Assembly (NCBI GenBank): GCA_027923505.1
Contig: BROI01000021.1
Coordinates: forward strand, 558,001 to 622,000
Length of the DNA: 64,000 nucleotides
Source: Mayamaea pseudoterrestris
Taxonomy: Eukaryota
Direction of reading: 5' to 3'
The position numbers were made by a program, and so were the translations under genes. The notes beneath the pieces are model-generated. The model made no database searches and was not told the DNA's origin. It saw only the letters and a program-made list of their open reading frames with translations. Below are positions 5,919 through 41,568 of the stretch, in pieces. Each line of letters begins with the position of its first letter. Position 1 is the first letter of the stretch.

Positions 5919-8900
5919 TCACTTTGGTGAGTATGCTCCCAATCGCGTCTCGAACTGCAGGCGCCGCAACTTATCTGCTCTGCGTTCCGTCCTCGCTTCG
6001 ATGCGCTTGCATAATTCGTTCCAAACGAGGCAAACAAGCGGATTTACTACTGAAAATAGATAATAATACCACGGAAGTGTTGCTCTTGACACGCTATCAA
6101 CCGTGAGACTGAGATACAGAACTGAATGGGACGCGTGAGAAACGATCTCAAGACGTACAGAGCGTGTGGCTAAGTCATTTACCTGTCAATCCAATGCTGA
6201 TGAAGACTGATAGAGCCCAGACATGATTACGGCAGATGGGAAGCTGGTCGACGATCAAATGGAAGCGGTAGACGAAAGATGTAGAGCAGATGATGACACA
6301 CAACACCAAGTGCGACAAGGCAAGGTCCCCAGCATTTATGCGTGCAGGCCCCGAATAGTATTTCAAAGCCTCGCAGCGAATCACATTTGCCCACACTTCC
6401 GCGTTTGGGCACTCGCGCAATAAGAGTTCTCGCTCATGGGTCAACATGAGGGCGCCATACGCTATCAGCCACATAATTGCCGACGAGAGCGCCGGTGGAA
6501 TCGCCTTGATTACAAGCATCGTGTAAAGTATTTTGCCTTCACGTCGTCGGAAGGTAATTGACTGGTCATTCTTCGGAGGCACATGCTTCATAACGTTCGG
6601 CTCGGCATCAGTCATGCATAAGGCCAGTCCAATGATTGGTAGGACAATTTGGAGGTACAAGACCGATCCGAGTGCGGGTACAAAGGGCACGACCGTCGAT
6701 AAACTGCAAGCACAAAATAGCACAAAAAAGGAAAAAGCGAGACATCCGTTTAAAAGGAAAATACATGCCGCTGTTGTGGCAGCAAGTGCCGCCCGACCTT
6801 GCTGCATGATGTCTGACAAATGTGAAACTGACGACGCGTTGCGAAAGCGAAAAGCACACGAGTGAGCTGAAATACCTGAAGCAAACTCAATTTCCGACCC
6901 TGTCGCAATTGGAGCTCTTCCGTCTTCGGATTCATTGTCATGAGCACAATGCTCGTCGAAAATGTCGATGCCTACCGCTATATCAGCAGTGGAAAAGATT
7001 GCCTCGTTCCATGGCATAGTCGATCCGACAGAAATGACAGTGTCGCTGTATTCTTGAAAGACTTCGATCATATCTCGCGTGGTTTGCTTGGTGACATCAG
7101 TAAACAAGCTGACAAGCAATGGTACATTATCAACCTCTTCCAAATGTCTTTTTACGTCATCGACTCCATGAGGCAGCCGGGCGTTCACGTCCCAATCGGC
7201 ATAGGCGGACGTCATTCGATGAGGATCTTCATCTTCTCCCGATTCAAGCGGTCGCAAAGATATCGCAGCATTCCATGACACATCAATCGAGAGTTGTATA
7301 GCCAGCTCTTTCTGACGCCGCATATTTCGAGGCGAGAAATAAACAAAACGCACACCAGCACCAGCAAATGCTTTCAACAAGCGTTGGATCTCGCCCCTTG
7401 GCACGACGAATGAGCCGAGGACACCCAGAAAAACCTGGTTCTTGGCAAGCGACCACTCGTCAGATGGGTTCTTGCTCTTCCCAGCCCAGCTCATGTCAGT
7501 TATGCCGTCAAATAGATACAATCTGTCTTCCGTAGCGACGTCATCAATACGATTTTCTAGGGTGCGAGGTATCGGCGAATACGCAAATGCTGTGACGTCC
7601 AGATCTGCCAGCTTCCAGTCATTCGTCGTTTCTAAAATTGTCCTCCTATCGCCGGCCGCTAGTGGCAGAATTGTTGATATTTCTCCTTGCCACGCTTCGT
7701 GACAAAGCTCAATAACAACGCTTGGATCGCCTATAGTGAGCACCTGATACGCCTTGGACCTGCTATCTTGAACTATCACACTAGTAGCATCTGGACGAAC
7801 GTATCCCCACCATCGAGATTGTTCTGAACTGCGCTCGTGTGCATCAATCTCTAAACGTTCGTTGACCATAGATTTTGACAAGATATGAAGTCGAAGCTTC
7901 TCCATATAGGGACTAAGGTCACCCCTGTCACCAGATGCATTCGGCTCGCTGGAAAAACCGATGCATTGCCCAAGAGCTCGTAGTTGATTGCTCCGACGCT
8001 CGCGGCACACAAAAGGAACCAGTTTCGACCGAGCATCGGATAATCGATCAAAACGACAGTCGCCGTCTCTATTTGAAGACACAAATTCATTCTTATTCCC
8101 GTCGACAACCAACGAGGCCAGCCCGATGCACTTCAATGATGGTAAGTACTGCCACCATGTGGGATCTTCAAATTGCACTTCATAAATAGAAGACTTCTCC
8201 ACCGCCACTGTACTATTTGCGGGTGCCTCTTTGCTTCTCATTTTACCGCCTGGGAGGCGGCGAAACACACTCCCGCCCCTCAATGAGAGGAACTGAGCTT
8301 CATTGTCAGAGGAATCTGAACTACTGCTACGAGAATCGTCACTGTCATGGTCACTATCTTCGTCATGGGTTAGACACAAGTCTAGGAGCTTCAGGCCCCT
8401 AGCTGATGGAATAATAAGCTGCTGGGGAATAGCATGGGGCTCGCAGACAATTTGGTCGTCTACCACTGAAACGCAAGTTGCAACGCCAAGTTTCTCCAGA
8501 AGACACTGCGAGACAGGAGGAACCGGAAGCATATTCTCCTTTCCTAATCGGATCAGAAAGAGTGTGCCTATGATGTCGCCGCTCCAAAGAAAAAATTGCC
8601 AAAGTGAAAGTCGCGAGAGAAGTGTTGCAACAATGTATCGGAGCAACAGGCGAGAATTAAGAAAATAACGCCGCACATAATCTTCACCAGATCGTGGAGC
8701 TGCAAGATGATGGACAATTGTAAGAATTCTAGCTGTGCCAAGAATTTCGGTGATGAACAGAAACGCTGGACCAACGACTGGCAAAATGCCGATAGCCGAT
8801 AGAAGGGGCAGAGGCAAGAGGAGTGACAGGTCCCCGTTCACGGAGTCAAGCCGGACAAACGACACAAATGTCGTAAGTAGGAGACAAATCAGTGCAATGA

Positions 8901-9993
8901 CAGAAAGAAGTTTACGGATCTCGATCAACTGTCTAAAGGTTTCAGAAGGCTGTGGCAACACTGCGAAAAAAAGCAGATTGTGCCTGTTAGCGAAAAAGCA
9001 AGATTATCTGGCACATAGTAAAGTGCCGCACGCACCGGAAGGCGTTCGAAGAGACTTCTTTAAAGGTGTCTCCATGACCAGGAAAACCCGCAGACCATTG
9101 CACAAGGGCAAAAAGTGTTCAGAGTTTTTAGGAAACGTGGACCTGCCGACCGGCAACATCGTAAAATTGACATCGTCGCGCAGTGATTCAGTCGTAATTG
9201 TCTCTCCGATACGAAATGTAAGAGATATCGAAGTCTCCTCAACCAGTGTGCAATCTGCGGGAGCTAAATCTCCAATTTGCAACGCAATGATATCTCCCTG
9301 AACAAGCAAAAGGCTAGGAACTCTACTCCATGCAGCCGACGCCTGGCCGTTTTGATCACACACTCTGTACACCGGCTAGAATAGAGCGGCAAAGTGAGAA
9401 AAAGCAGAACACAACGGACCACCATATTAGATACTCACGTAATTGTCAGTCAATGAGGTACCGTGTATATTTCTCTCGTTCGATTCCATCACCACGGCAG
9501 GTACCCGATGTGAAATATCTTCGCTTTTGGCTGCGACGTTCTTTCCGCGAAGAGATTTTCGCAGAAAGTTCCTTATAATTCTTCGCTTGGCATTTTCGCT
9601 ATCATTGTACCAGAGTTTTTGTCGCGATCGAAGCATGTATAGGCTCATAGTCGCTCCGGCAAGAAGAACCAGCGATGCCGCACACTGTGTTTTATACACG
9701 GACAATGCAGCCGTTGCATTCAGAACCGTGTTGCTAATGACACCAGCCCGAGCAAGCCAAGAAATACATGAAACTACCAACAATGCAATAGTAAGCAAAA
9801 GCGAACCCGCATACAGATCGAGATCGTAGTAGATCCATTGAGAGGTTAGCGAACGTTTCACCGGGGTGCACGCCGATGTGCTCGTAGACACCGGCTTGCT
9901 TGGCTCCTCTTTCAAATAATTTTCTAGTGTCTGTCGTAGACGATGGCGAGCTTCGTGCCAAGAAAGAGGTTCAACTCGCATAATTCTGTCCAT
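5919..9993 (-). CDS. TMEM94: TMEM94/KIAA0195-like, P-type-ATPase-like membrane protein. Introns 9376-9438, 8961-9035 and 6122-6182
   Basis: Motifs VPSLLLVQGDIIAL, RFVYFS and HLEEVDNVPLLVSLFTD. A last exon missing from the ORF track (6121-5919) encodes ...RRLQFETRLGAYSPK*, matching the TMEM94-type C-terminus. Multiple TM helices. Confidence 0.82.
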
Positions 9994-10908: not shown

Positions 10909-13900
10909 TTAACTTTGTCTATCGTGTAACAGCTTCTCGACGCTTTCGCCTGCTGCGATGCGCTCGATTAACAATTCCGGTGCCATGTCGAGTTGCTTAG
11001 CAATGGCTAAAATTCGCTTCAAATCGTCACAGATGTTCTTGCTTATCAGGGTTCCTTGCTCGCTTTCTTGACTGGCAACATCAGACAGTCCACTAATCGT
11101 CGCATCTAACTGGCCAACCGCCACATGCTGTCCTTTATGACATCTCCTTCTTTCCTCGTTTACCGATGACGAATTGTCTTCGGTTACAACCTCGCTATCG
11201 CAAGAGGGATCATACCCTGTTGAGTCACTGTACGTTGTTTGCCTTTCGTTATCATCCGAACCGGAAGAAGATGTTCCTACTAACCCTTTGAAACTTTGCA
11301 CCAGCCATTGCGCAGCTTTATCAATTGGTGCGGCCGCTTTAGTGTGCGACTTTCGAGCGGAAAGAGTGATTGACGTTGCGCGTGTAGTGCTTCCATAACT
11401 TTCGTAATCTCGTGAATTGAAACTATGGGAGACTGCACCATCTACAGAACTGTCGCATAGATGCTCGACTTCCACCGACTCGTTGTTGAAGCTTGCTTGA
11501 CGAGTTGTCGAACCATCCTCTTTGGCTGGCTGCCGCGGCGTCAAAGGCCTTCTTTTGCGAAAGAAGGATGAATTGATTGCTCCATTGGCAGGACATGTGA
11601 TGGGCATATCAACGCCAACTTGAGGGAGTTCTCGTACGGGCCGCCTCATAATGCCAAACAAGGTTCTCTTTGCTGTAACAGGAACCAGCGCTGAATGGAT
11701 ATCGCTGGAAATGTCTGGCGGAACCACTATTACCGATTCCACCTTGGTTGACACGGATGCCATCGAGGTGCCGTTATTTTTATCACCAGGCGTACCTACA
11801 TCATCTTGAATTGTATCGACACAAGTCCAAGGCTCGAGTAGCGGATTGAGGACAAAATGCCCGTATGGTTGACAAACACTTCTAGTGATGGCAGGTGATG
11901 GATGCACTGGGTGTTTTGACAGTCTTCTCCCAGTTGACATAGCACTTATGTACGTTGCGCCATCGGGCAAAGGCACCACTTCAACAGAAGTCATGTGTTC
12001 ATCCGAACAATCAAGGTCAATAATGAAGTCTTGCGGTTGTTGTAAATCATCAGAAACATCCTGATGGTGCAGTATCAAGTCATGAAGCTCAGGTTCACAC
12101 TCTTTGCTGACCAATCGAACTTCGTGCAGAATCTCCGTCTCCGGAGTAAGGTGAACTTCATCGTCGTTTGGAAAAACTATTGAATCCCTTTTTGACCGTC
12201 CAGCTGAGACGCGACATGGCGAGGACGGGTTTCGCATCGATCGCACTCGGCCCATTAGGGACGAAAATCGCTGCAGCTTGGGAGACTGAATCTTGTAGCT
12301 TGCTAAAGAACGAGCCTCTTTAATAGATAATGGCCCCGTTTCAACGACAAGACATGATCCCGAGTTCCTTGGACTCATCAGAACTTCAATTGCGCCACCT
12401 GTACCCTCTCGCTCACTAGCTTCCAGAACTGTGATCATAGTTCTTGTGTCGTCATCGTCAGACCCCGGTTGCGTGAGTGCAGAATCACGAAAGCTGGTAG
12501 CAAGACCAGACGGTTCGACGTCTTGATTACTGTCCTCCAGAAAAATCGTATTGCTTCCTCTCAACTTGAAGATGAACGGAAATAGTTGCCTTACTTTGCC
12601 CTTTCGCTTTGTTGGAGAAAAGGGTTCGATTTTCTTCGCCGATTCCTGCCCGGAGCTGCAACTTTCATGGAGCGGAGGTCTATCGCACACCTTTGGTGGA
12701 TCCGACATACACTCTTCTACATCCGAGACGTTGGATTTGACTGAAGGAATGGCCAGCATAGTTTGCTGCATATCTCTGTCAATTAAAATGTCAAGCTCAG
12801 CAAAAGGCGTTTCGTGATCGTCCAAGCCCGCATACAAAGAGTCCAGTGAAGATTTATCATCGGCATCTGTCGCAAACGTATTGAAGTCTGTCTTGCTTCG
12901 TTCTAGCAATCGATAATTCTCCTTGATTTGGTCGCCTGAGTTGGTAGATGGAAACGAAAAGAGTGACGACGAGGCCGCAATTTCAAGGTCCGGATGGTAA
13001 CTTTCCTTGTCGTAAGCAGCGGTGGCGCATGAATGTTCGAAAATACTCATCGGGAGCTCTTGCTTCTCCATAGCCGTGTCCGCGTCAGTAATGGCAGAAA
13101 AAATTGATGATCCGCCAGCTGCGTTTAGTCCATGATCTTGCGGGGATGGAAGCTCAGTCAATGTCTTATGCGGAATCATGCTGTTGCCAAAAGTCGCAAT
13201 AAAAGAAGTATAATTCCATCCTTCATTACGCTTGACGTCAATGTCGACCCCATGCGGTGGAGATCTTATTTTAACAACTCTGGGCGAACTTTTAGGTAAT
13301 GGGTGAAGATTTCTACCGGTAGACAATGACGGCACTTCTCCGTTTAATTGCTTTCCTCCTGCGAGCGATGTTACCCGGCCGATGTTGTAATCGTCAGTTT
13401 CGTGGCTTGCAAGCACTATTTCTGGCTGAGATTCAGTCTCAATTGGTTTACGGTGCCGTTGTGGAGCCTTGGGCTGATTGCGAGAGCTTTTGGGGCCTGT
13501 CGGCGTGAAAGAATCATTATTTGCTGCAACCATTTCGCACAAGTTACGACGTAATGAACCGCGGGACGAATTTGTTTCGTAAATCGATATGCGAGACGGC
13601 GCTTTTATCCGCTCACTCGACTGCTTTGGAATTAGTTTAGTAGGTTCTATTCGCGGTACGCTTTCTTTGCTCAGATCCAAACCAGTCCCTCCATGTGGCC
13701 TAAATCTCGATCTTGGACGTCCTATTTGTCCTATTTGCATGGTGCTGATTCGTCCAGTTTGACGCTCACAAGTTGTAGGTGACTGCACCGTCGAAGCGCA
13801 AGTGGTGGCAGTCCTACCTCTGCGACTAGGGCCACCTGTGATTCTGTCGGCCACTGGTGCTGACGTAGAAACCTTTGGTAATTCATTGCACTTCGACGTT

Positions 13901-14409
13901 TCCTCCATCTGGTTCTTTTCACTTCCAAACTTTTTCTGTAAGCGTTCCTTGTATTGCATCATGCGCTTTTTCTTTTCAATTATAGACTCGGTCCGTGGCT
14001 GTTTGGTATTTGGACATATGCGTCCCTCTGCTGTGTCTCTCACACGAGTATTGCTTTGGTTGCGATCATCAATAAACGCTGATGTGTTGAAATGAAGATC
14101 ATTCCCTCGCTGTGCGTTGTAAGGTGCCATCGCTTGATCAGTCGCTGCAATTATATCAGGGGTGCGATTGTTCTTTAAGAAAATAGCTTCATTGGGACGA
14201 CGAAGAGGACACGGAGGGGAATTGGTCAGCCTGGGACTGGAAGCCTTCGGCGCTTGCTCGGAATATCGACTTTTGTAAATATGAGGCTCCCTCGCATGCA
14301 CTCGTTGCTCAATCTTCGAACAGAGTTCACCACCAAGTGCCACTGCCACTGTAGGCTCGTCTTTTTGAGCAAAAGCTTGAGAACATGGGGATGCAACCTT
14401 CCGACCCAT
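10909..14409 (-). CDS. Hypothetical 1166-aa Ser/Pro/Asp-rich, probably disordered protein
   Basis: Uninterrupted 3.5-kb ORF starting with ATG; no recognisable domain. Confidence 0.7.
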   Translation of the reverse strand: MGRKVASPCSQAFAQKDEPTVAVALGGELCSKIEQRVHAREPHIYKSRYSEQAPKASSPRLTNSPPCPLRRPNEAIFLKNNRTPDIIAATDQAMAPYNAQRGNDLHFNTSAFIDDRNQSNTRVRDTAEGRICPNTKQPRTESIIEKKKRMMQYKERLQKKFGSEKNQMEETSKCNELPKVSTSAPVADRITGGPSRRGRTATTCASTVQSPTTCERQTGRISTMQIGQIGRPRSRFRPHGGTGLDLSKESVPRIEPTKLIPKQSSERIKAPSRISIYETNSSRGSLRRNLCEMVAANNDSFTPTGPKSSRNQPKAPQRHRKPIETESQPEIVLASHETDDYNIGRVTSLAGGKQLNGEVPSLSTGRNLHPLPKSSPRVVKIRSPPHGVDIDVKRNEGWNYTSFIATFGNSMIPHKTLTELPSPQDHGLNAAGGSSIFSAITDADTAMEKQELPMSIFEHSCATAAYDKESYHPDLEIAASSSLFSFPSTNSGDQIKENYRLLERSKTDFNTFATDADDKSSLDSLYAGLDDHETPFAELDILIDRDMQQTMLAIPSVKSNVSDVEECMSDPPKVCDRPPLHESCSSGQESAKKIEPFSPTKRKGKVRQLFPFIFKLRGSNTIFLEDSNQDVEPSGLATSFRDSALTQPGSDDDDTRTMITVLEASEREGTGGAIEVLMSPRNSGSCLVVETGPLSIKEARSLASYKIQSPKLQRFSSLMGRVRSMRNPSSPCRVSAGRSKRDSIVFPNDDEVHLTPETEILHEVRLVSKECEPELHDLILHHQDVSDDLQQPQDFIIDLDCSDEHMTSVEVVPLPDGATYISAMSTGRRLSKHPVHPSPAITRSVCQPYGHFVLNPLLEPWTCVDTIQDDVGTPGDKNNGTSMASVSTKVESVIVVPPDISSDIHSALVPVTAKRTLFGIMRRPVRELPQVGVDMPITCPANGAINSSFFRKRRPLTPRQPAKEDGSTTRQASFNNESVEVEHLCDSSVDGAVSHSFNSRDYESYGSTTRATSITLSARKSHTKAAAPIDKAAQWLVQSFKGLVGTSSSGSDDNERQTTYSDSTGYDPSCDSEVVTEDNSSSVNEERRRCHKGQHVAVGQLDATISGLSDVASQESEQGTLISKNICDDLKRILAIAKQLDMAPELLIERIAAGESVEKLLHDRQS

Positions 14410-16824: not shown

Positions 16825-18651
16825 ATGACACTCATGCCGATCTGCCTGATTGCATTCGCCTTAATAGCAACAGCACAACTGGTCACAGCCTTTGCGCCGC
16901 CTTGCATTAGCAATACGAGACTAAAAGCAAGCCAGCATCAACAATATGAATCCCGCGTTACGGCCCTCTTTGCATCATCCAGTCCTCCGACAGTCATCGT
17001 GGTTTCTCCACCTGGAGGTATTGGTGAGGTTGCTGCTGTAAAGTCTGCCTCCATGGGATGCAAGGTGCGCTGGTTTGTCGTCTCATCACCCACCACAGAG
17101 GACGCAAGCATGCAGCAACAAGGAGGGACATCATTACAATTGTCTCCACAGGCTATGAGAAACTTTCAGGTGGGTGGCGGGACGCTGGAACTTGCTGGGT
17201 CTGACGCAGACAAGCTTTTGCTTCCAGTCGACAATCCTGAGTCAACCATCTCGGCCTTGTCGCAGTGGACTGGAAGTGTTGATGCTTTGATTTGCACGTA
17301 CGATACAGGCCTTAAGGTCTCCCCTCAAACGTCAAACAAGGAGCGTGAGATACAAAAGCAACAAACATGGGATGATGCGATCAAAGTGGCTGCACGCGAA
17401 GCGGCCCAGGCCGTCGCGCCATCTGGGAGCAAGGTTGCTATATTATCCGCTTTCGACGAAGAAGCCGGCGGTGAGTCGCCTGCAGTTCAGCCTAATGGTA
17501 GAATATCAGGTGTAATGACTGGAATTTTAAATGGCGGTAAGCCTAACATCCCTACCACGTTGACGGAAGCCTTGAACACGAATCTTCAGTCAACTCTGTA
17601 TCGCCTTCGACACGGGGCTCTTTTTGGGCTTCCTGAAAGCTCACCCGACTTTAGTCCGCTTGTTGGAGGACCTAAAAAGGATGCAGAATTATGCGAGGAA
17701 TATACCATGAGGGCAGTTCGCGTCGACCCAAGCTTGTCCATTTATGGAAATGTCATGCTTGGTAGTACGACGAGGTCTTCCCGCATTGCCGTTGGCGAAG
17801 CGGCCGTCCTTATGGCGCTTTTGCGAGTTCCTGTCGAGAGCGACATGGATGTTTGCATATCGTCGCAACGGGGAATGGAGTATGTAAGTATTGGTCAGTG
17901 GAAGGAGGAGTTTATGCGCGCACAGCAAGTGCTGTCTTCTGGGCAAGGTGCACGATTATTTACCGCCGAGTTTGCTTCCGTTCCAAACGTTAGTCGACTA
18001 GCCGATTGGCTTGCAACGAAGTGGGCGCCGGCAGTGCTTCGAACGTATGATATTGCAACAATTCGTTCAGGTGAACGACCTGTAAATGTGCGTCGTGTCG
18101 ACGAGAACAAGGTAGAGATTGTCTGGCAGCAATTGGTGGATTTCCAGTCGGCCACTGTCGGAACATTGATAATCGAAGTGAATGATACTTATCTGACTGC
18201 TATTCGAGGGTCAGGGGATGCAAGTAAAGGTTTCGGAGCTATCAGCAGCCGACCCCTGAATGGCGAAGATGTCATTGTCAGATTTCTTGCCGAAGCGGCA
18301 TCTCAAGCTGTCGAGAAGGGCCTCGCGAAACGGGTAAGTCGAAATCATGTATGCCTGGCGAACAAAAGCAATAGTATTGATTCATTCATCCGTTTTTTCT
18401 TACGCTAAACTCCACCCCTACAGGCAATTCCGAAGAAATTGACACCAAAACCACAACTACAGTCCGCCGATTTGATTCCAGTCACAACCCTACAATCGTC
18501 CGGAACTGTAACGCAAAAGGAGCCAAGTCTTTTTCCGTCTCCTCCATCTACCAGGAGCGACCAAGGACCTCGGACTGCCGGTGCACGCCGTTCGACCGAG
18601 CGTCAGCGTGGCAAGCAACGGAGAAAAAAAGACGACGACACAGTATCTTAA
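16825..18651 (+). CDS. Plastid-targeted protein of unknown function with a possible degenerate Rossmann-like N-terminal fold. Intron 18334-18423
   Basis: Signal peptide ending VTA-FAP (ASAFAP motif), then a transit peptide. VIVVSPPGGIGEVAA...GCKVRWFV resembles a dinucleotide-binding start. The CGG|gtaagt...cag|GCA intron links to the 18439 ORF in frame. Confidence 0.72.
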
Positions 18652-24935: not shown

Positions 24936-26807
<1,872 letters not shown>

Positions 26808-27076
26808 GGTCGAAAGCAAGTGAAATGTTGCAGCGGTCGATGGCGAATGGCCCAGGGAGGAAGATATCTTCGCCGTCCACGTAGAATTCTACGTAATTCG
26901 CGGTACTGGAAGGGTCGACGCGTCGCGGAGGTACTTCTACATTCCAATCCACAGTGCATCGACTGGACGACGGACGAGCATCTCGGATTGGCAGCATCTA
27001 CAAGCGATTTCTTCTCCGCAGTTTGTACCACTGCCTTTGCTTGTTCTACATTGCTTCAACCATACCCACAGCCACC
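26808..27076. promoter_or_regulatory. 269-bp bidirectional promoter region shared by ATP synthase beta and delta
   Basis: Divergent ATGs at 26807 (-) and 27077 (+). Contains the perfect palindromes ACGTAGAATTCTACGT (26879-26894) and CGACGCGTCG (26916-26925). Confidence 0.7.
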
Positions 27077-27733
27077 ATGCTATCTCGAACGACGTCGTCG
27101 ACGACATTCCGACTTGTTTTCAACAAGTCAGTCCGCCTGTTGAGCACGGAAGCATCTGCGCCGGCTTCCATGGTGAATCTAAACTTTAGCTTGCCCCACG
27201 AAACCATTTACAAGAATACACCCGTCCATAGTGTCATTCTTCCGGGATCCGAAGGAGAGTATGGAATCACTGCTAATCATGTTCCCTATGTGGCTCAGCT
27301 TAAACCTGGCGTAGTGCAAATTATTCATGCGGCTGAAGGTGGAGGTGAGGCGGAAAAATATTTTGTCTGCGGAGGCTATGCCCTTACACATCCCAACAGT
27401 ACGACGGTGAGTCATAATGGGCGCCTTTTCTACTAGTTAAGATAATCATGGCGGCCTTTGCGAAAGAGTGACGGAATTGAGCTAATATTTAACGTTTATC
27501 TTACGCTGCAACATGCGCGCTCGTTCTCGTTCCAATCACCCATGCAGGACGTTGTTTGCCCGGAAGGCGTTAAACTAGACGAGATTGACTCGGCTGCCGT
27601 TTCGGCTCACTATGAAAAGGCCAAGTCGGCCTTTGGAGCTGCGGCCGCTGGATCTGTGGAGCAAGCCGAGGCACAGATTGACATGGAAGTCAACCGAGCT
27701 ATGGGCCTTGCCATCGGACTCAATTTGAGTTAA
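27077..27733 (+). CDS. ATP16: Mitochondrial ATP synthase F1 subunit delta (homologue of bacterial epsilon). Intron 27407-27547
   Basis: Presequence MLSRTTSSTTFRL..., then LNFSLPHETIY, VILPGSEGEYGITANHVPYVAQLKPGVVQI, KYFVCGGYA and a C-terminal helical hairpin (AEAQIDMEV). Confidence 0.93.
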
Positions 27734-28012
27734 TTAAGATAAAATACTTTAACTTAAAGTACGACGGTTACTTGTATCATATGATCTTTACCGATTCTCT
27801 CGGGAAACATGGGGCGGCATGGCAAGCTAATGGGTTCCTACTACAGGTACTGAACGTCGTCGTTTGTGTCGTGGTTGAACCGCTACGACACTCATTGCGA
27901 GCGCACGAGCGCACCCTTCACCACACACGCGCGTCGCTGCATGCTCATTGTCAAACTCAACTTCTCTACTCCACACTTATATCATCAAGGAGATAGTACA
28001 AAGGTGAAAACG

Positions 28013-31000
28013 ATGTCGCTATCGCTATCCGACGGACTCCGATTTGCCTTGCTCCGGCAACACGATGCACCCGCTTCCGATTCCGCTTCAGCACCGCAAC
28101 TTGATCCAGTCCAGCCGTCTAATTTAAACTGGATGGCGATTCCTCGGGATGACCCTGGATTAGCGTATTTGTATCATGCGAACGAGTTGCAATGCATCGT
28201 AGATGGCGGTAAGGTTTTATTTCGCACGCCGCGCCCCAGTCAAAAGGCCATGGTTTTGGATATGGCAGCCTCGGGAGATGGACGCATGGTTGCCGTCGCT
28301 TGGTGGCATACGACGAGCAATCAAGAGGAGGCAATCGCGAGCGACTCCAATATATTGCTGTATTGCTACAACGTGACGAGCAACGGTGGATTTGAGGAGC
28401 GCTACACATACACGATACCCGCGACGCAAGCTACTCTTGCAGACGTCCGGGCCATGAGTTTTGGATCAAATCACACGCTCGCCTTGGTCGACAGCGATTC
28501 AAATTTGCACTTCATTCAAAACAATGGCGTTGGAAAGATCCTGCGTTCTAATGCTACTAGTGCATCATTTGCTCCAAACGGAAATTTTCTGGCAGTTGGA
28601 CTCATTGACGGGACAATTAACATCTACAATGCAGCCTTGACAATGAAGTCAGCCTCAACCATCAAGGCTGCTATCAATTCGACCTGGGACTTTCCAATGG
28701 CTGGACCTCAATGTCCATGCACTCATTTGGATTGGGTTTCTTTAGATGTCCTAGTGGCTGGATATTGCCGCGTGACGCCTGGAGATGATCCGCCCGAAGA
28801 TGCCGACATGGACGATGAGGCTGATCATGAAGCGTTTCTTTTTGTGAACGAAATGGAGCAAGATTTTTCACTGAAGGAGTGCTACGATTTGGGCGATGTT
28901 GTACCTTTCTTTAACGTTCCCAAAGGCCGTCGACACAATTTCTACACGTGCTGTTTAATTGAAAAGAAGCTCATGCTTGTCGCGACAAACCTAGGGAGCG
29001 AAATTAAAGTTGTCGCTTACGAAGATAAGGAATGGAAGATTATTGATGTTCCAGAAGGAGACGATGTACACTGTCCCACGTCCGACGACGACGAGTTTAC
29101 TTTTCCGACGGGATTAGGCATTATGATCACCGCAGGAAAACCAGTAACTGTTCTTGCGAGCACGAGTGGGTCTTTGTCATACTTTAGCGTTTTGCACGAG
29201 CAGCATTCAACGTATTTTGATCTACCATTGATGGAACCAATGCTGCCTCAAGCGGTTGTACCGTTGGACGACACACAGTCGATTGCTGTCGCGGCAGCTT
29301 GCACCCTTGTTCCGGCAAAAAACGCTGAAATTGATGTTTCATCTGCCGACCCGGCGATCACCACTCTTGAAATTACATCGTCGTCCGCTGAAACACCGGT
29401 GCTTAACCTTCAGGGAGTTGAACCTACGTTTGTGTCGATGTCATCTGGATCGGGAACGGATCTGCCCACTTTTGGGACCGGCACAGCTGCACCGACGTTC
29501 TGCTTTAGCTCTCCCGCCGGCAGTAGGTTACAAGTTGGAGCAGCTTCAGGGGCAGCTTCGGCTACAAGTATGCCTTTTAACATATTTGAAAAGCGTTATT
29601 CTGTTCCGGTTTCATCAATGGTCAAGCCATTGTTTGGAAGTAATGCAAACCAAGTCAAGCTTGCTGCGACACCCGCTGCCACGCATGAGCTATCAAGTCC
29701 TGCTGCGGAAAAGGCTGCAAGCGTTTTTGATTTATTCGATACGGAAAAAGTTGGTAGTCTTCCCCTTTCGATGTTGGAAATTATGGTCGACGAGCTCGGC
29801 GAAGGCTTTTGCGGCGATGAGTTTGACGTGCAGGTGAACCTTATTGATCAGAATGGTACTGGTACTCTGGATCGTTCTTCATTTATTAGTTGGTACCAAC
29901 AATTTGCAGAAGGCAACGAGAAAAATGCGTTCAATGACGATAATTCCATGGAGTCATTCGAGCGAGCGGAGCGGGCTGAGGAGGCCGAGAACGCTCGGAA
30001 AGCCTTTTTGGCCATCGCAAAAAAAGAAAGCGGCTCGCCAGTGATTCAATCGTCGCAATTTGAAGAACTTATGGAATCGTTGGGAACGACTTATCACGAC
30101 GAAGACCACGGACAAGCTTTGAAAAGGTTAGAAAGGCAGGATGGTTGTGTGCATCTGGATGACTTCGCGACGTGGTATGTCAAGTTTTTGTTCGATGAAG
30201 ATGGCGACTCCGACGATGGCAAAGGCAATAGAAGCGAGGTCGATGTTCTAGAGTCATCGCCCAGTCAAGTTGTCGGCGGTTGGGGAACTCTATTTAAATC
30301 AGATCCTAGCAATTGGAAGTGCGTATCGTGCATGGTTTCCAATAATCCAACAGTCAATCAATGCGCGGCGTGCCAGGTGTCACGTCCTGGGAGCCAGGAA
30401 CAAGATGTTGTTGGTGCAACTGCTGATGCCTCTGCATTTACTATTGAATCAAGTATTGGTCCCCAAGGGTTCTCTTGTGGCGGTTCGTTGGAAACATTCT
30501 CTTCTGCATTCACATTACCCTCAACGCAATTCGCAGCTCCAGCAACTGGCGGTTTTCGTTTTGGATCATCTGAACGCGAGGCAGTGACACTGGCCGCTTC
30601 ACCTGGCGCAACCAAGGGGAGCGAAGCGAGTGCAATTTTGGACAAGGCTCGGGCTGCTGTAGAATCGCGCTATCCGCCGGCCAGTTCTAGTGCACCAAAG
30701 AATTTCGATTCTTGTCATTCTGCTAACCGAACGCTGTCTACTCAAGCTACTTTGTCGGAGTCAGGGGAGCGGAAGGGATCTCTGCAGACACCTGCTGGTG
30801 ATGCACAGTCAAGCGATAATGTATACTCGCCGGACATCGGAGTTTCAGACAGTCATTCCACGCCAGGGGCCATCGAGCCAGTAACGGCGCCAGTCTTCGG
30901 TTCCGGTTCAGCAGCAGCTACACAGCCATTTATCTTTCCTTCTTCAACGGAAGTTGCGATCGAAACACGCTTAGCTCCGAGTGCTCAGATCAATATTGTT

Positions 31001-34000
31001 TCCAAGCCTATGTTGAAATCGCCATCAAGCGAAGCCGTTGAATCGCACATGGCTGCTATAGTACCATCTAGCGATGCAGCAACAACGGCAGCACTTGCGT
31101 TCGACTCGCATGACAAAGAAAAGTCTGGTCTTCTGCCGCGGTCTATGTTATTAGAATTAATTGAACAACTCGGTGAAGAATTTTCTGGCGAAGAATTGAA
31201 CAAGCAGGCGAGTATGATTGATACTAAGGGCACCGGCATGCTAAACCGTAGCTCCTTCATTAGCTGGTATCATCATTTTACTGAAATGGACGAAAGCGAC
31301 AAGGGTGATGAACTTTCCTTAAATTCAGACGATCGAGCAGAGCGAGTTGAAGAAGCGGAAAAGGCGAAGCAAATTTTTTTGACCATTGCGACTAGGAAGG
31401 AAGGTGAACCATTTGTACAGGCCTCGCAATTTGAGATTCTCATTAACTCCATGGGTGCCACATATTGTGAGGAAGAGCACGGTAAAGCTCTGAATCAATT
31501 AGCAAAGAGTGGCCAGGTATTTCTTGATGATTTTCTTAAGTGGTACATCACATACCTTTTTGACGAAGAATGCGAGTCTGATACGGAAACAAGCAAGGAC
31601 AAAAGAACTGTTGCTCCCTCGTCCAGTCAAAGTGCTAGCTGGGGAATCACTTTTAGAACGGACCCAACTAGCTGGAAGTGCAATTCGTGTTTAGTCCTTA
31701 ATCAAGGTGCTGTGTTTACCTGCGCGGCATGTGAGACGCCACGTTCCAGAAGCAAAGACGCAGGTGCTGCTGGCAATTCTGTAATTGGTGGCGTAACAGT
31801 TGCTCCAGCACTAGCGGCGGAAGGGTCAACCGGCTCATTTGCTGGAGGTTCTACGTTTGATGGGCCTGCACCAGGAAGTGATAAAGTCGGGGTTTCAAGT
31901 GACAAAGAGGAGACCGCTGCAACCTCGTGCCTACCTGCCGATTACATGGCGACAACGCTTTGCAGTGTCACAAATCCTGAGGTGGTAGCAATTAGAGAAT
32001 CGACTTCTTCCAAGTTTAAAGCCAATTTCACATCAGCACCACTTAGTTCATCGGTAGCTAGTGTTGCGAATGTTGCGAAAACCAGTGGTGGCAAGCAATC
32101 CGTGAAGGCCGCGAAGAGTTCCGATAACTTGGCATACCCACCGATAGAGTTTCAAGCACCCACGCCTTTCGACTCCATCCAGCGATCTACCGGTAGTTTG
32201 AAACCTGAAACCGTACCTGCAATGCCTATGAGTTCCAACGTTGATCAAGTTCAGCAAAGCAGCGACAGAAAGCCATCTGCTAAATCGGCGTACCCACCAA
32301 TTGATTTTCAAGCACCAAAGCCTTTCGGTTCTGACTCAAAAGTAGCACCTAGCAACCCCGGTATATCACAGAATAAGCAAAGCGGCGACAGAAAGCCATC
32401 TGCTGGATCGGCGTACCCATCAATTGATTTTCAAGCACCGAAGCCTCTCGGTTCTGACTCAAAAGTAGCACCTAGCGACCCCGGTATATCACAGAATAAG
32501 CAAAGCGGCGACAGAAAGCCATCTGCTGGATCGGCGTACCCACCGACTGATTTTCACGCGCCAAAGCCTTTCGGTTCTGACTCAAAAGTAGCACCTAGCG
32601 ATCCCTGTATATCACAGAATAAGCAAAGCGACGACAGAAAGCCATCTGCTGGATCGGCGTACCCACCAACTGATTTTCAAGCACCAAAGCCTTTCGGTTC
32701 TGACACGAAAGTAGCACCTAGCGATCCCGGTATATCACAGAATAAGCAAAGCGGCGACAAAAAGCAATCTGCTGGATCGGCGTACCCACCGACTGATTTT
32801 CAAGCACCAAAGCCTTTCGGTTCCGACACAAAAAGCAAAGCAGCGACAGAAAGCCATCTGCTAAATCGGCGTACCCACCAATTGATTTTCAAGCACCAAA
32901 GCCTTTCGGTTCTGACTCAAAAGTAGCACCTAGCAACCCCGGTATATCACAGAATAAGCAAAGCGGCGACAGAAAGCCATCTGCTGGATCGGCGTACCCA
33001 TCAATTGATTTTCAAGCACCGAAGCCTCTCGGTTCTGACTCAAAAGTAGCACCTAGCGACCCCGGTATATCACAGAATAAGCAAAGCGGCGACAGAAAGC
33101 CATCTGCTGGATCGGCGTACCCACCGACTGATTTTCACGCGCCAAAGCCTTTCGGTTCTGACTCAAAAGTAGCACCTAGCGATCCCTGTATATCACAGAA
33201 TAAGCAAAGCGACGACAGAAAGCCATCTGCTGGATCGGCGTACCCACCAACTGATTTTCAAGCACCAAAGCCTTTCGGTTCTGACACGAAAGTAGCACCT
33301 AGCGATCCCGGTATATCACAGAATAAGCAAAGCGGCGACAAAAAGCAATCTGCTGGATCGGCGTACCCACCGACTGATTTTCAAGCACCAAAGCCTTTCG
33401 GTTCCAACACAAAATTAACAGAATTTGTTTGTTCTAGCGTGTCGCAACACAAGCAAAGCAGTGAAAAGCGAACGGGGCCCACTGGATCGGTATACCCGCC
33501 ATTTGATTTTGAGAAGAAGCAAGACATTGAATCAGCAAAGATGCATTTAGCTACGCCGGCGTATCCGTCGATTGAACTATCGCCGCTGTCGTTCGATGTA
33601 TCCAACACTGCCAGTGGTACCTCATTGAACACATCAATTCCTGTCACGAAATTTGATTCCACACAAGTAACTGCCCACAACGTTGAATGTAAAGCACCAA
33701 CGCCTTCCATTGGGTCACAGAACACGGGGGCTGCAGACTCAATTACACGCTCGCAGCAGACGCTCGCTGGCCTCGCTGCAATGTCGCCTGCCGCAGCAAC
33801 GAATACAGCTTTCAAAAAAGACGATTTGTCGCAGTTAACCACGGTAACGCAAACAGAAGTAGGCGCGACGCGATCATTCGCACAAAGTTCGAATCTGGTC
33901 CCATCAGGCAACTTTGCTGGCGGTCGCAGACAGCAACAGAATCGAACGGTCATGCAGACGCATCATATTGCCAACGAGAATGTCTGCACGCTTCAGTTTG

Positions 34001-36608
34001 CATCTTTATGCGGGGCGATGCGGGAAATTCTTGCATCTTTAAGCAACTGTTCGCGGGACAACGGCGGATCCGAACTGCATTCATTGGATGTTGTAATTGC
34101 TGAACTAAACCGACTTATCTCTGCATGCCACGAGCTGACACACTCTATTCAATCGTCAAAGCGACAAATATCTCTCGTACTTGGCAAACGAAGCGAATGT
34201 CATCGTCGAGTTTCAGAGAGTCAGTTTCTGATGGAAAATGTCAGAAGTGATTATCGAAACGAGGAAGATTTCTTTCGGTGGCAGCCACTTGATTTGACAT
34301 CCGAGAAACGACGTCGTTCACTCATAAGTTCCGTTATACTTGTCGACAAATATGCCAAACTTCTTCAAGAACGATTGAGTCTGCTAATGAATTTGGAGGG
34401 ATCATCTGGGAGTTTGGGTATGTTGAGCGGCGTTAAAAATCATTTCGAAGGCTTTGAACGATCTAAGGAGGGAATTATGCTCGTGATTGGGACAGTTGAA
34501 GCGCTGACTTCCGAGTTTTATATCGAGCGACAACCCTCCGAAATGTCGTTTGGCTTGCTCTCACCAGCGAAACCAGCGGTGAAGAGCGCGGTCCTTAAGG
34601 CCAAGCATAAATGGGCCGAGGTTGAAAATCTTATGCAAGAACTGTCAGTGCCTGATGTCAAATTGCTTTCCTGCAGTAATGCGTGTATGGCGACGTTTCA
34701 GTCAACAGAGGCATCGCACAGGTCCGCGTCACGACAAAAGATTGTCCGGAAGCATGCGACGCCGTCTTTATCTCTGCAACAAGCTTTAATCCCGCGGCCT
34801 GAATGGGACGAACCAATTACGATGGACAAAGTGCAAGCGTCTCGGGTCACTTTTACGCCTCCAAGCATACTTAGTCAAACTGCTTTTAGTGATGCTGGGA
34901 ATGCAGCTTTAAAAACGTTTGGTGCGACGCGCTCAATTGCAAGGGAAACTGATTACGTTTGCCGCCATGACCCGCAAGCTTCTGTCGCTAATAAGTCTCC
35001 ACCTAGATCTTTTACAGCAAGAGAATCTATGTCAGCTCGATATCTGACAATGGAACCACGATCGACTGGTGCTTCTAGAAAGTCGTCTCGAGACGAGGAC
35101 GAGTCAGCAAAAAACCAAACTTCGGCCGATAATCACGAACCGCCGACGGTGAAGCAATTTGCCGATTTGTCTGGTATCGCTGGCTCCCTTTTTTCGCTCA
35201 GCAATGATGATTTGGCCATAGAATTTGATCAAGTTGCGCTCAAAGCGGTAGGTTCAGAGAGTCCGGCAGGTAATTCGTTTAGTGAACTCCGTCCATCTTC
35301 GATTGCCCTTGGTGAAGTAAGTGACGATAGTACACCTACAGTGGGCTCTTCGTCTTCGATGGTTGAGGATGAGCAGAAGAGACTTGACCAAACTGAATTT
35401 TACCGTCTGCTGGTAAATTTTTACCACACACACAATCCTTTGAAACTTGACGAGGTTAAGGCAACCCTTGAAAAGTATGTGGGCAAAGAAATGGAGCTTT
35501 TCGAAAAGCTGTCCAAAAAGTAAGTTCCTATTTCATGTTCTGCTCTCGTGTGTTCACCATCAGCTCAGCGTCTTTAACCAGGTATGGTGTGGAGAATCCT
35601 CTTCGTTTAAGCACGAGCAAATCTGATAATACAGGTACGGCGACGTCTCAAGCTGTTACATCCGCAGCTGCCGCTGAAAAAGTATCCCCACAGCGGCCTT
35701 TACTGTTCAATAAGCCAGCGACTGTCGCTTCTTCAACCAATTTGGCTCATGCGCCCACTCCCCCGTTTGGTTCTGCCCAATCTGCGCTACAGTCACCATT
35801 CATGCAACCTCCACCTGCTCTAGCGGAACTCCCAAAGTATAACACTACTTCCCCCTTCAACCAGACGAGTCAGAATAGCGTTGTTTCATCGACAAGTCGT
35901 TTCGCTAGTCCGTCGAATGGCGCACCTGTTCCCTTTGGGACACCAGAATTGAAGAACAACCAAGGCATTATGGGAAGCATACCGGTAGCACCTTCACAAG
36001 CGAATAAGGATCCTCGTCAGATGCTAATCGAATTTTATCAGCAACAAAATCCAAGTAAGCTAGCAGATGTCGACAAACTATTAACCAAATATCAAGGACA
36101 ACACGAATCCATGTTTCGAAATTTGGCGAAGAAGTACGAAATGGACCCTGCTGTGTTTGGCTTGTCAGGCGACGCTCTAACACCGAGCGGCTCTGTTAGT
36201 TTTGGACAAAACTCTCCACTTGGCACGACATCTAACTTTGGATGCATGAATGCCTCATCATTCAAAAGCCAACAAGGCGGGTTTGTACAAGCATCGCCCG
36301 GTGGCGCAAGCTTCGGCCAAGCCTCCGTCTTTGGCCAGACCTCGACGCCATCTTCTATGTCAGGTGTGGCTGGGTTCGGATCACCGACACCTCTCGGTGG
36401 AGGTGGACTTTTTGGCCAGTTATCACCCGTCACTGGGTTTGGCACGACTGTCTCTGGCGGATTTGGTGCGTCTGCACCTGCGGCAAGCTTTGGCGCGTTG
36501 GCAAGCAGCACACCAGGGGCGAACTTTGCTTCGCCGGGAGCAGGTTTTGGTTCCCCATTCGGGAGCGTTGGCACAAATGCGACGCCCTTTGGCGCAGCGC
36601 GTCGCTAA
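28013..36608 (+). CDS. Very large Nup214/Nup159-like FG nucleoporin: N-terminal beta-propeller, two EF-hand + RanBP2-ZnF modules, 41-aa repeats, coiled coil and FG tail. Frameshifted in this assembly by a 581-bp duplication; intron 35520-35581
   Basis: WD-like N-terminus (ASFAPNGNFLAVGLIDGTINIY), zinc fingers WKCVSC..N......CAAC and WKCNSC..N......CAAC, a helical region, and a C-terminus rich in SFGQ/GFGS/LFGQ/PFG. Removing one duplicate copy puts the 27866 and 33439 ORFs in the same frame. Confidence 0.72.
32253..33414 (+). repeat. Coding minisatellite of 123-bp (41-aa) units, arranged as two near-identical 581-bp blocks (32253-32833 and 32834-33414)
   Basis: The unit SAYPPTDFQAPKPFGSDSKVAPSDPGISQNKQSGDRKPSAG recurs every 123 nt. 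The only difference I found between the blocks is 32825 G versus 33406 A. Confidence 0.95.
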
Positions 36609-40334: not shown

Positions 40335-41568
40335 TTACTTGCTCTCCTCCAGCGCCGACGCTCCCGAGATAATCTCAATGAGCTCGGTGGTAATGCGAGC
40401 TTGACGGGCACGATTGTACTTGAGCGTCAACGCATCAATCATCTCCCGCGCATTCTTAGATGCATTCTCCATGGCCGTCATGCGGGAAGACTGCTCGGCA
40501 GCAGCGCCATCCATGAACGAGTGGAAGATTTGCGACGCTAAAACAAACTCGTACAAATCCTGGACAGCTTCCGCCTTGTCTGAATCAAACTCGTAATTGC
40601 TCATACTCTCTCCCTCCTCCGTCTGGACAACAAAAGGCGTTACAACCTTGTACATTTGATTGTACGTGGCTGCGTTGACGTACGAGTTGTAAAACATGAC
40701 GATGGCATCATAATCCTTGGCCCCAGCAGCAACAATCTCAGTCGCCATGGCCGAGGCCAACGCGTAGGATCCAGGCGCAATGACATCGGTCAAAGATAGC
40801 TTGAGTTCGTCTCCAACGAATCGACGAAGCTGTGAGCGTCCCTTTTCTCCAATAACGACAACATCGGCTTCCTTTCCCTGCCTGTGCAGCTTTCGGAGAC
40901 AATCCTTGGTGGAGCGACTGATGAAGGAATTGATACCTCCGCATAGTCCCTTTTCGGACGTAAAAGGAATGATCAAAACCTTCTGCGGAACCTCCTCGTA
41001 TGTGGCATTCTCAACAAAGGCAGGCTCTCCGTTGATCGCCTTGGTCCACGAGTTAAATGGCTTGGCCACCGCGAGACGATTCTCGTCTCCCTTGAGCTTT
41101 GCAGCGGACACCATCTTCATGGAACTGGTAATTTTTTCAATATTCTTGGTAGATTGAATCTGGTTCCAAACTGCACGGAATGGATGAAAGAAGTAATTAA
41201 TGATTAATACACTTGCGTTGAAGAAAAGCGGTAAAACGATGCGAGCTTCCAACTTACTTTGCTTCTCGGTAGCCATGCCTCGCAGTTGCTGCGTCACAAC
41301 ATGTTGTTGAGAAAACCTGAAGAAGAGGAAGAAAGGATTGAATCATCAGATACGTCGCATTAAGCGTGTAATGACTGCGACTACAACCAGAAGGCTTTCG
41401 CCGTCCGCTGCTACTACCGGTCGCAAAAACAATAAATCCGACCGTTCGTCACGCGCTAATTGTAATTCTTTTTGAATAAAAGCTTAGTGAAACTTCCTTC
41501 TCATGCAAGTCTACTCACAATGCAAGCGCCCGAGGCGCTGTTTTCTGCGTAGCCAATCGAAGCGCCAT
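40335..41568 (-). CDS. ATP3: Mitochondrial ATP synthase F1 subunit gamma. Introns 41317-41518 and 41171-41257
   Basis: Presequence MALRLATQKTAPRAL...RGMAT, then NIEKITSSMKMVSAAKL, TSEKGLCGGIN, EQSSRMTAMENASKNA and YNRARQARITTELIEIISGA. Confidence 0.97.

Follow-up and report, generated by a model that had tools for sequence, protein, structure and literature searches.

EF-hand/zinc-finger cassettes on a Nup214/Nup159-type nucleoporin of the diatom Mayamaea pseudoterrestris

The animal and yeast nucleoporins Nup214 and Nup159 are not known to carry EF-hands or RanBP2-type zinc fingers. A stretch of 64,000 nucleotides (nt) of nuclear DNA from Mayamaea pseudoterrestris (NCBI GenBank assembly GCA_027923505.1, contig BROI01000021.1, positions 558,001 to 622,000 of the forward strand; hereafter the window, numbered from its first letter) contains a gene at 28013-36605, on the plus strand, whose product joins both domains to a Nup214-like propeller. 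The locus raises the question of what such domains do on a nucleoporin of this type, and in particular whether they couple calcium sensing and Ran binding to mRNA export, a possibility raised in a first prediction made from the DNA letters. We assign the host protein with high confidence, in identity and in anatomy, to the diatom orthologue of the cytoplasmic-filament nucleoporin Nup214/Nup159, and describe two copies of a cassette in which a degenerate EF-hand body is followed by a tethered finger. The calcium ligands are missing from this body throughout its family, and we lean, if only slightly, towards a Ca2+-independent scaffold that presents predicted Ran-binding fingers on the cytoplasmic filaments.

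The host protein and its two cassettes

The product of the gene is the NCBI 'hypothetical protein MPSEU_000899500' (P0002) of 2819 amino acids (aa), which was 100% identical to our query from the module region. Its N-terminal part, at about aa 1-395 (28013..29200, plus strand, as are all features of this gene), was recognized as a Nup214/Nup159-type beta-propeller by Pfam, AlphaFold2 and Foldseek. Pfam family PF16755 matched aa 101-347 with an E-value of 2.6e-8 and 34 bits against a cut-off of 29.6, covering only positions 68-304 of the 366 in the profile. The AlphaFold2 model of the first 460 residues, based on a 24-sequence alignment of relatives, reached a predicted local distance difference test score (pLDDT) of 79 and a predicted template modelling score of 0.80, with strands extending to residue 395. 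When this propeller model was used for a Foldseek search, ranks 1-4 were taken by the N-terminal domain of human Nup214 (E 1.9e-18 to 1.3e-16) and ranks 5-6 by that of yeast Nup159 (E ~1e-14), the generic WD40 proteins beginning at rank 7. Conservation is poor in the middle and C-terminal parts of the protein, and 15 of its 29 FG dipeptides are found in the last exon (nt 35766-36593). The PF16755 match above cut-off, the first six Foldseek ranks and these 15 C-terminal FG dipeptides support the Nup214-like nature ascribed to the protein in the original prediction.

Downstream of the propeller, a module of about 240 residues is present twice, at nt 29675-30397 (M1, aa 555-795) and nt 31034-31762 (M2, aa 1008-1250). 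The two copies are 47% identical across 235 residues (BLASTP E 1e-73), which agrees with the duplication first noticed in the letters. Each begins with a body of four degenerate EF-hands, located at aa 563-727 in M1 (29699..30193; AlphaFold2, Foldseek and Pfam EF-hand_7) and at about aa 1021-1183 in M2 (31073..31561; BLASTP alignment to M1, Pfam and PDB matches), the boundaries of the latter being carried over from M1 through the pairwise alignment. With Pfam EF-hand_7 (cut-off 30 bits), the single modules scored 30.1 bits (M1, E 6.4e-7) and 29.7 bits (M2, E 8.5e-7) and the entire open reading frame (ORF) 47.1 bits, with the M2 match at module residues 21-79.

The AlphaFold2 model of M1, which is of moderate confidence, consists of eight helices arranged as four helix-loop-helix units (H9-21/H31-41, H48-57/H67-86, H91-114/H126-135 and H142-152/H161-173 in module numbering); downstream of them come an acidic stretch without order and, last, the finger. 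A Foldseek search with the M1 body gave 233 matches at E<=0.001, the top 50 of which were all centrin, calmodulin or troponin C, with about 160 columns aligned. The best matches were centrin-2 in the PDB sequence search (E 3.2e-7) and entry 2obh in Foldseek (E 2.7e-6, about 20% identity), and M2 likewise retrieved centrin-2 and calmodulin among PDB sequences. These helix-loop-helix units and structural neighbours are in line with the EF-hand fold that had been proposed for the modules, and the eight helices, together with the ~160 columns aligned to four-EF-hand proteins, bear out the suspicion of a second, more degenerate EF pair. Judging from the model, each module is a complete, predicted four-EF-hand body of the centrin/calmodulin type with a tethered finger. 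The closest matches of the body are centrins, which are pore-associated elsewhere, but calmodulin and troponin C come out nearly equal, and nothing firm is drawn from this ranking.

The second EF pair is strongly conserved, with the pattern F-x-x-L-x-E-x-L-G-x-T-Y-x-E-E-E-H ... D-F-x-x-W-Y-x-x-W-L-F followed by an acidic run of Ser, Asp and Glu, a conservation that hints at a binding surface. The acidic linker that had been described in the first analysis follows the fourth EF-hand in both modules. In M1 it forms a flexible, D/E/S-rich tether of about 40 residues (30194..30313) which is modelled as disordered, with pLDDT <50 at module residues 175-211.

Finger class and calcium ligands

The cassettes end in RanBP2-type zinc fingers at aa 768-787 in M1 (30314..30373) and aa 1221-1240 in M2 (31673..31732), identified by motif fit and PDB sequence search. 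Both conform to W-x-C-x2-C-x3-N-x6-C-x2-C, and the motif places their starts at nt 30314 and 31673, exactly where they had been put before. Pfam Zn_ribbon_RanBP reached a borderline 27.3 bits with the entire ORF (cut-off 27) and 52-148 bits with its relatives. The class of the fingers was tested with 46-aa queries around each of them against PDB sequences; fingers of Nup358/RanBP2 and Nup153 filled the first 21 rows for M1 and the first 12 rows for M2, with entries including 3gj7, 3ch5 and 7mnr. The nearest solved relatives of both window fingers are thus of the Nup153/Nup358 kind, as had been anticipated.

Fingers of this type are functionally diverse, and those of the cassette might bind a ligand other than Ran, such as ubiquitin, RNA, or a coat or membrane factor, so that the cassette would be a docking device unrelated to the Ran cycle. 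The ubiquitin-binding fingers of TAB2/3, RNF31, HOIL-1L, Npl4 and TRABID are indeed among the matches, with E-values of 3e-4 to 0.2, but the Nup358 and Nup153 fingers lead them by several orders of magnitude for both window fingers, and the RNA-binding fingers of ZRANB2 (E 0.43) and RBM10 (E 0.5) come later still. The dipeptide after the second Cys also speaks for the Ran-binding class. Where ubiquitin-binding fingers have Thr-Phe, this dipeptide would contact Ran, and it reads MV in M1 and LV in M2. Among the 237 fingers of 159 module proteins, the form is mainly M, L or S followed by V (MV 111, SV 31, LV 29, MI 17, FV 11), and Thr-Phe, the signature of ubiquitin binding, lies outside the 15 commonest dipeptides, which account for 228 of the 237. 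Similar dipeptides prevail (LV 54, MV 39, LI 29, MI 26) in the 196 fingers of 33 proteins that were matched by their fingers only, which are presumably of the animal Nup153/Nup358 types. Taking both sides into account, we regard a non-Ran ligand as unlikely.

The EF-hand bodies could also act as functional Ca2+ sensors through which Ran binding or the export of mRNA is gated, a role compatible with their fold, which is that of centrin and calmodulin in AlphaFold2 and Foldseek. To read the ligands, all modules were aligned to the profile, giving loop positions for 83 full modules and for 140 short cassettes, which hold only the second EF pair and the finger; the canonical set was defined as D1, [DNS]3, [DNSTG]5 and [ED]12, and the register of EF3 is less certain as its loop varies in length. 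This set was found in 0/83, 1/83, 0/83 and 0/83 of the full modules for EF1 to EF4, and in 0/140 of the short cassettes for EF3 and EF4. Glu at position 12, which serves as the bidentate ligand, occurred in 1, 0, 5 and 3 of the 83 full modules, respectively. EF1 mostly carries K, M or R as loop residue 12, with Pro as residue 9 in 60/83; residue 12 of EF2 is Ala or Ser in 63/83; and residue 1 of EF4 is hydrophobic (L/I/V/M) in 83/83. The loops in the window conform to the family pattern. Those of M1 end, at position 12, in M, S, Q and D (EF1 to EF4), with K as the first residue of EF3 and L as that of EF4, and none of the loops in the window combines oxygen ligands at positions 1, 3 and 5 with Glu or Asp at position 12.

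Some features would still suit a calcium sensor. The second loop of M1 retains D1, N3, T5, G6 and D9, and Asp is common at position 12 (30/83 in EF3; 36/83 in EF4 of the full modules and 93/140 in EF4 of the short cassettes), and certain non-canonical EF-hands are known to bind Ca2+ through backbone carbonyls. Against this, the loss of ligands is family-wide; it is therefore a state that the family has maintained and does not reflect the decay of a single species' gene, and it favours an EF-hand domain that works without Ca2+ over a sensor. Calcium sensing, which was part of the original prediction, is therefore unlikely on the aligned loops, and a working sensor that gates transport appears still less probable than a ligand other than Ran. 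These results also indicate that 'EF-hand' labels in databases are a poor guide to calcium binding, since JGI calls two relatives 'Ca2+-binding EF-hand superfamily protein', although the family lacks the ligands.

Distribution of the cassette and structure of the gene

A profile of three modules, searched over 1.84 billion representatives, matched 2842 proteins at E<=0.001, 130 of them at E<=1e-30, and the working set comprised 193 proteins with 83 full modules, 140 short cassettes and 191 lone fingers. The match extended over at least 100 positions in 159 proteins. Of these, 78 have at least 1500 aa, and 67 of the 78 also match a propeller hidden Markov model built from the family. The survey thus yielded dozens of representative proteins with a full module and a homologous propeller. 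The four-EF-hand form was seen with the diatom protein and its nearer relatives, and the oomycete Nup214 orthologues possess the shorter cassette of one EF pair and a finger. Proteins with short cassettes also match the Nup159/214 propeller family, namely P0029, P0031 and P0045 (E 7.8e-12 to 1.6e-17, the first two reaching the end of the profile) and P0081 (E 3.8e-7). A search with P0031 gave 48 matches, 45 of which bear oomycete names (Phytophthora, Peronospora, Pythium, Aphanomyces, Albugo and others); precomputed Pfam annotation records both the propeller and the finger in 34 of the 48, and a few are automatically annotated as 'Nuclear pore complex protein (Nup214)' or 'Zinc finger, RanBP2-type, EF-hand domain pair'.

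In brown algae the short cassette occurs in a different setting. A profile of six other short cassettes retrieved 26 proteins, 12 from brown algae (Ectocarpus, Laminaria, Sphacelaria, Hapterophycus), 13 unnamed and one fungal finger protein. In 5/9 scanned proteins, an N-terminal cyclophilin domain (Pro_isomerase, E ~1e-44 in three) precedes several cassettes; two of the five are from Ectocarpus, one from Sphacelaria and two from EukProt (P0196, P0197, P0203, P0204, P0043). The Nup214 propeller was not found in these five models, several of which are partial. Besides, P0009, P0063 and P0066 have up to six cassettes separated by Ala/Gly-rich linkers, with fingers ending in PNPAAPA, and gave no propeller match. 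Weak leads from the Atlas, all below 0.9 (archaeal EF-hand/zinc-ribbon clusters, and a Zn_ribbon_RanBP cluster, mostly Bacillariophyta, at 0.83), were not used as evidence.

As the cassette is found in diatoms, oomycetes and brown algae, it is, on this sequence-based distribution, at least as old as their split. The lineage specificity originally proposed for the architecture therefore holds at the level of stramenopiles but not more narrowly, given the oomycete names of 45 of the 48 relatives and the short cassettes of brown algae. The number of full modules per protein ranges from one to four. In a FastTree phylogeny of the 83 full modules, copies from the same protein formed an exclusive clade in 13/19 multi-module proteins, among them the protein studied here (support 0.953), while the first copies of P0003 and P0006 clustered with each other. 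On this tree the cassette is repeatedly duplicated or homogenised within genes, and, whichever of the two applies, having several copies seems to matter.

Within the gene, the long ORF extends over 27866..32926 and has its first plausible ATG at 28013, from which 1637 codons are read (P0001). Exon 1 (28013..32818) encodes aa 1-1602 of P0002, its translation matching P0002 exactly to residue 1602. A putative intron of 74 nt with GT..AG ends (32819..32892) follows in the NCBI model and bridges a frame break, as seen in three-frame translation and exon mapping. Exon mapping further gave exon 2 (32893..35520), with the rest of the repeats described below and then a region without family match, and exon 3 (35583..36605), with the second copy of an FYxxxNPxKL motif and the C-terminal FG-repeat region, the latter also delimited by the FG count. 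The two are separated by intron 2 (35521..35582, 62 nt, GT..AG), which is supported by spliced contigs and agrees with the NCBI model, its cut being shiftable by <=3 places.

The transcript evidence consists of contigs from four public runs of a single study, for which the kind of run is not on record. Contigs from three of the four (X2, X3 and X4) connect 35519 to 35582 and omit the 62 nt with GT..AG ends; they are therefore derived from spliced RNA. An X2 contig spans 28307-30897, from the propeller into M1, and an X3 contig spans 31047-32384, from M2 into the repeats, both without joints. As these runs splice further downstream, the joint-free contigs show that the modules belong to the transcript. 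None of the contig pieces listed covers the repeat array at 32385-33374, and none crosses intron 1. The contigs contain in-frame insertions of 6 nt after 31003 (X1, X2) and of 3 nt after 34982 (X2, X3, X4) and depart from the window sequence at about 1% of their bases, pointing to a different strain or allele of this organism.

The repeats consist of ten copies of a 41-aa (123-bp) unit with the core AYPPxDFxAPKPF(G), at 32132..33404, identified with Tandem Repeats Finder (TRF) and by regular expression on P0002. TRF reported two arrays of 4.7 copies each with 93% match, which correspond to two near-identical blocks of ~575 bp. The frame shifts exactly where these two blocks meet, and an A5 run adjoins the junction, so that the break at 32819-32892 could be a real intron, an assembly collapse or error, or a homopolymer error. 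This frame break within a repeat, for which the NCBI model needs an intron, is also what could be cited for an artefact, in which faulty gene modelling or a chimeric assembly had fused a nucleoporin to an EF-hand/zinc-finger gene. That explanation is hardly credible, as a single uninterrupted frame of 1637 codons takes in the propeller, the two modules and the first repeats, one contig (28307-30897) links the propeller to M1, and the order of propeller and module recurs in 67/78 long relatives and in named oomycete proteins whose assemblies are numerous and independent of each other. In the relative P0003 a comparable short motif, [YF]PP(4-6 residues)PxPF, is present eight times, which indicates that the core of the 41-aa repeat is conserved as a linear motif and differs from a plain FG repeat.

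Past the repeats, phmmer with aa 1901-2480 matched diatom and oomycete relatives in a conserved block (P0004, E 5.5e-25; P0031, E 7.3e-20). A motif of ~40 aa, FYxxxNPxKLxxVxxxLxKYxGxExxxFxxLxKKY, which belongs to no Pfam family, occurs twice, at 35401-35600 and 36015-36152 of the window. Its first copy is interrupted by intron 2, and a similar motif closes the alignment consensus of the relatives.

Three genes for subunits of the F1 ATP synthase lie within 16 kb. Those for the beta subunit (24936-26656, minus strand; ATP-synt_ab, E 2.5e-69) and for a delta/epsilon-type subunit (26954-27733, plus strand; ATP-synt_DE_N, E 1.2e-15) form a divergent pair immediately upstream of the nucleoporin gene, and that for the gamma subunit is at 40335-41294 on the minus strand (ATP-synt, E 4.4e-74). 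A type II DNA topoisomerase is encoded on the minus strand at 947-5287 by three consecutive ORFs (gyrase B/Toprim; TOPRIM_C and DNA_topoisoIV; DNA_topoisoIV), which are presumably one intron-containing gene. Three further long ORFs, of 928 aa (6175-8961, minus), 1166 aa (10909-14409, minus) and 527 aa (16825-18408, plus), had no Pfam match at E<=1e-5. A DEAD-box gene at 53553-55334 was considered as a candidate for the helicase Dbp5 and ruled out, its nearest relatives being CshA, Dbp10 and DDX54.

Proposed role and comparison with known systems

In yeast and human, the propeller of Nup214/Nup159 is the platform for the Dbp5/DDX19 helicase. Based on its fold, the propeller of the diatom protein may recruit Dbp5 in the same way, and the C-terminal FG repeats would presumably bind transport receptors, on a protein placed by inference at the nuclear pore, on its cytoplasmic face. 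The fingers, two in this species, might bind Ran like those of Nup153 and Nup358 and so hold it at the cytoplasmic mouth of the pore, the cassette thereby filling the niche that the Nup358 fingers occupy in animals; by this analogy the cassette would be a Ran-docking device, a part of the proposal for which we consider the chances evenly balanced. The EF body would act without Ca2+, either as a spacer with a fold of its own or by clamping a helical partner, and duplication of the cassette could provide multivalency. A broader and decidedly tentative reading, which we think doubtful, is that stramenopiles equipped their cytoplasmic filaments with a Nup153/Nup358-class finger that invariably comes with a Ca2+-blind EF pair; the carrier would be Nup214 itself in diatoms and oomycetes, and a cyclophilin-bearing protein in brown algae. 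The Ran-docking toolkit found on animal Nup358 would then have arisen twice independently, or derive from an ancestral filament module since lost in most lineages, and the EF pair with its finger might constitute a new two-part unit that binds Ran or one of its regulators.

Several observations weigh against a Ca2+-independent scaffold with Ran-binding fingers on a Nup214 orthologue. Regarding the host, phmmer with the propeller against PDB sequences returned generic WD40 proteins only, so that a fold search was needed to settle the identity of the propeller. In Nup214/Nup159, a coiled-coil segment joins Nup88/Nup82 and Nup62/Nsp1; the region expected to hold a coiled coil for Nup88/Nup62 binding had no Pfam or PDB sequence match, the part of exon 2 past the repeats containing no Pfam family and its 522 aa (aa ~1957-2478) giving 0 PDB sequence matches. 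Regarding the body, the AlphaFold2 model of M1 was built on a three-sequence alignment and has a pLDDT of 69, which corresponds to moderate confidence only, and the second EF pair (G-T-T-Y-x-E-E-E-H) is the best conserved part, which suggests a specific function of the EF body beyond that of a scaffold. The window fingers, taken singly, are under the Pfam cut-off of 27 (18.1 bits for M1 and 22.3 for M2; 25.8 for the full NCBI protein), and the M1 finger ends in QVSRPG, the usual ending in the family being ETP(N/R). The role of the dipeptide in Ran binding is reportedly described in Higa 2007 and in Partridge & Schwartz 2009, and serves as a lead only. Finally, 40 of the 124 strain differences comprise 15 synonymous and 25 non-synonymous changes (5:5 in M1 and 3:5 in M2), a weak sign of constraint from a count that is too small and incomplete to use.

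The cytoplasmic filaments are the least conserved part of the pore, and outside animals, fungi, plants and trypanosomes they are known from homology screens only. One such screen detected Nup358 only in opisthokonts and candidates for Nup214 in all supergroups, as far as the available part of the paper goes (PMC2951903). A full-text literature search found no description of EF-hands or RanBP2-type fingers on a stramenopile Nup214. That 2010 paper was the sole one containing both 'Nup214' and 'Phaeodactylum', and the terms 'EF-hand' and 'zinc finger' are absent from its accessible text; the Phaeodactylum, Thalassiosira and Phytophthora candidates for Nup214 in its supplement may be the same genes, already picked as Nup214. 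The portion available of a 2021 review on pore evolution mentions neither stramenopiles, diatoms nor EF-hands, and a 2026 paper on Phytophthora capsici merely lists a JGI 'Nup214/CAN component' in a predicted network. The architecture is thus known so far through automatic domain labels in databases, the Nup214 kind itself being known. As the cassette is sharply defined and extends from diatoms to oomycetes and brown algae, it is directly testable in transformable diatoms.

The diatom protein resembles Nup214 (human CAN) and Nup159 in having a propeller of the same family and FG repeats, with the propeller first and the FG region last, which is also the order in Nup214. It differs by two EF-hand/finger cassettes inserted after the propeller and by the array of 41-aa AYPPxDFxAPKPF repeats. 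With Nup358/RanBP2 it shares the finger class, both fingers being nearest to Nup358 fingers in the PDB, and, by inference, the cytoplasmic face, and the cassette proteins of brown algae share the pairing of cyclophilin and Ran-type finger; cyclophilin is in the domain list of Nup358 according to the title of a reference cited in the accessible part of PMC11825100. However, the diatom protein has one finger per cassette between EF bodies instead of eight fingers clustered in tandem, Pfam scans of the ORF and of P0002 gave no PF00638 Ran-binding domain, solenoid, E3 region, cyclophilin or other Nup358 domain, and it is not an orthologue of Nup358. If our reading is true, a Nup214 with its own Nup358-type fingers would suggest a way in which Ran is retained on the cytoplasmic side of the pore where Nup358 is lacking. 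The likeness to Nup153 also lies in the finger class, with entries 3gj7, 3ch5 and 2k0c among the top matches, but Nup153 is a protein of the nuclear basket without a propeller, whereas the diatom fingers are on a Nup214-type protein.

Compared with centrin-2/Cdc31 and calmodulin, the EF body is a domain in a protein of 2819 aa and has lost the canonical Ca2+ ligands in all four loops. Centrin is counted as pore-associated in the part available of PMC10034585, and Cdc31 belongs to yeast TREX-2 according to the passages at hand of PMC11825100. Zinc fingers on cytoplasmic filaments are a theme shared with NUP149 of Trypanosoma brucei, a member of the NUP76 complex. In the same accessible text (PMC11825100), trypanosomes are without a Nup214 orthologue, and NUP149 is a zinc-finger nucleoporin of the cytoplasmic side with strong Ran-TurboID labelling, whose fingers are without obvious homology to those of Nup153 and Nup358. 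The diatom fingers, in contrast, clearly belong to that class and are carried by Nup214 itself, and, if the proposed role is true, they would follow trypanosome NUP149 as a second example of cytoplasmic-filament zinc fingers in organisms other than animals.

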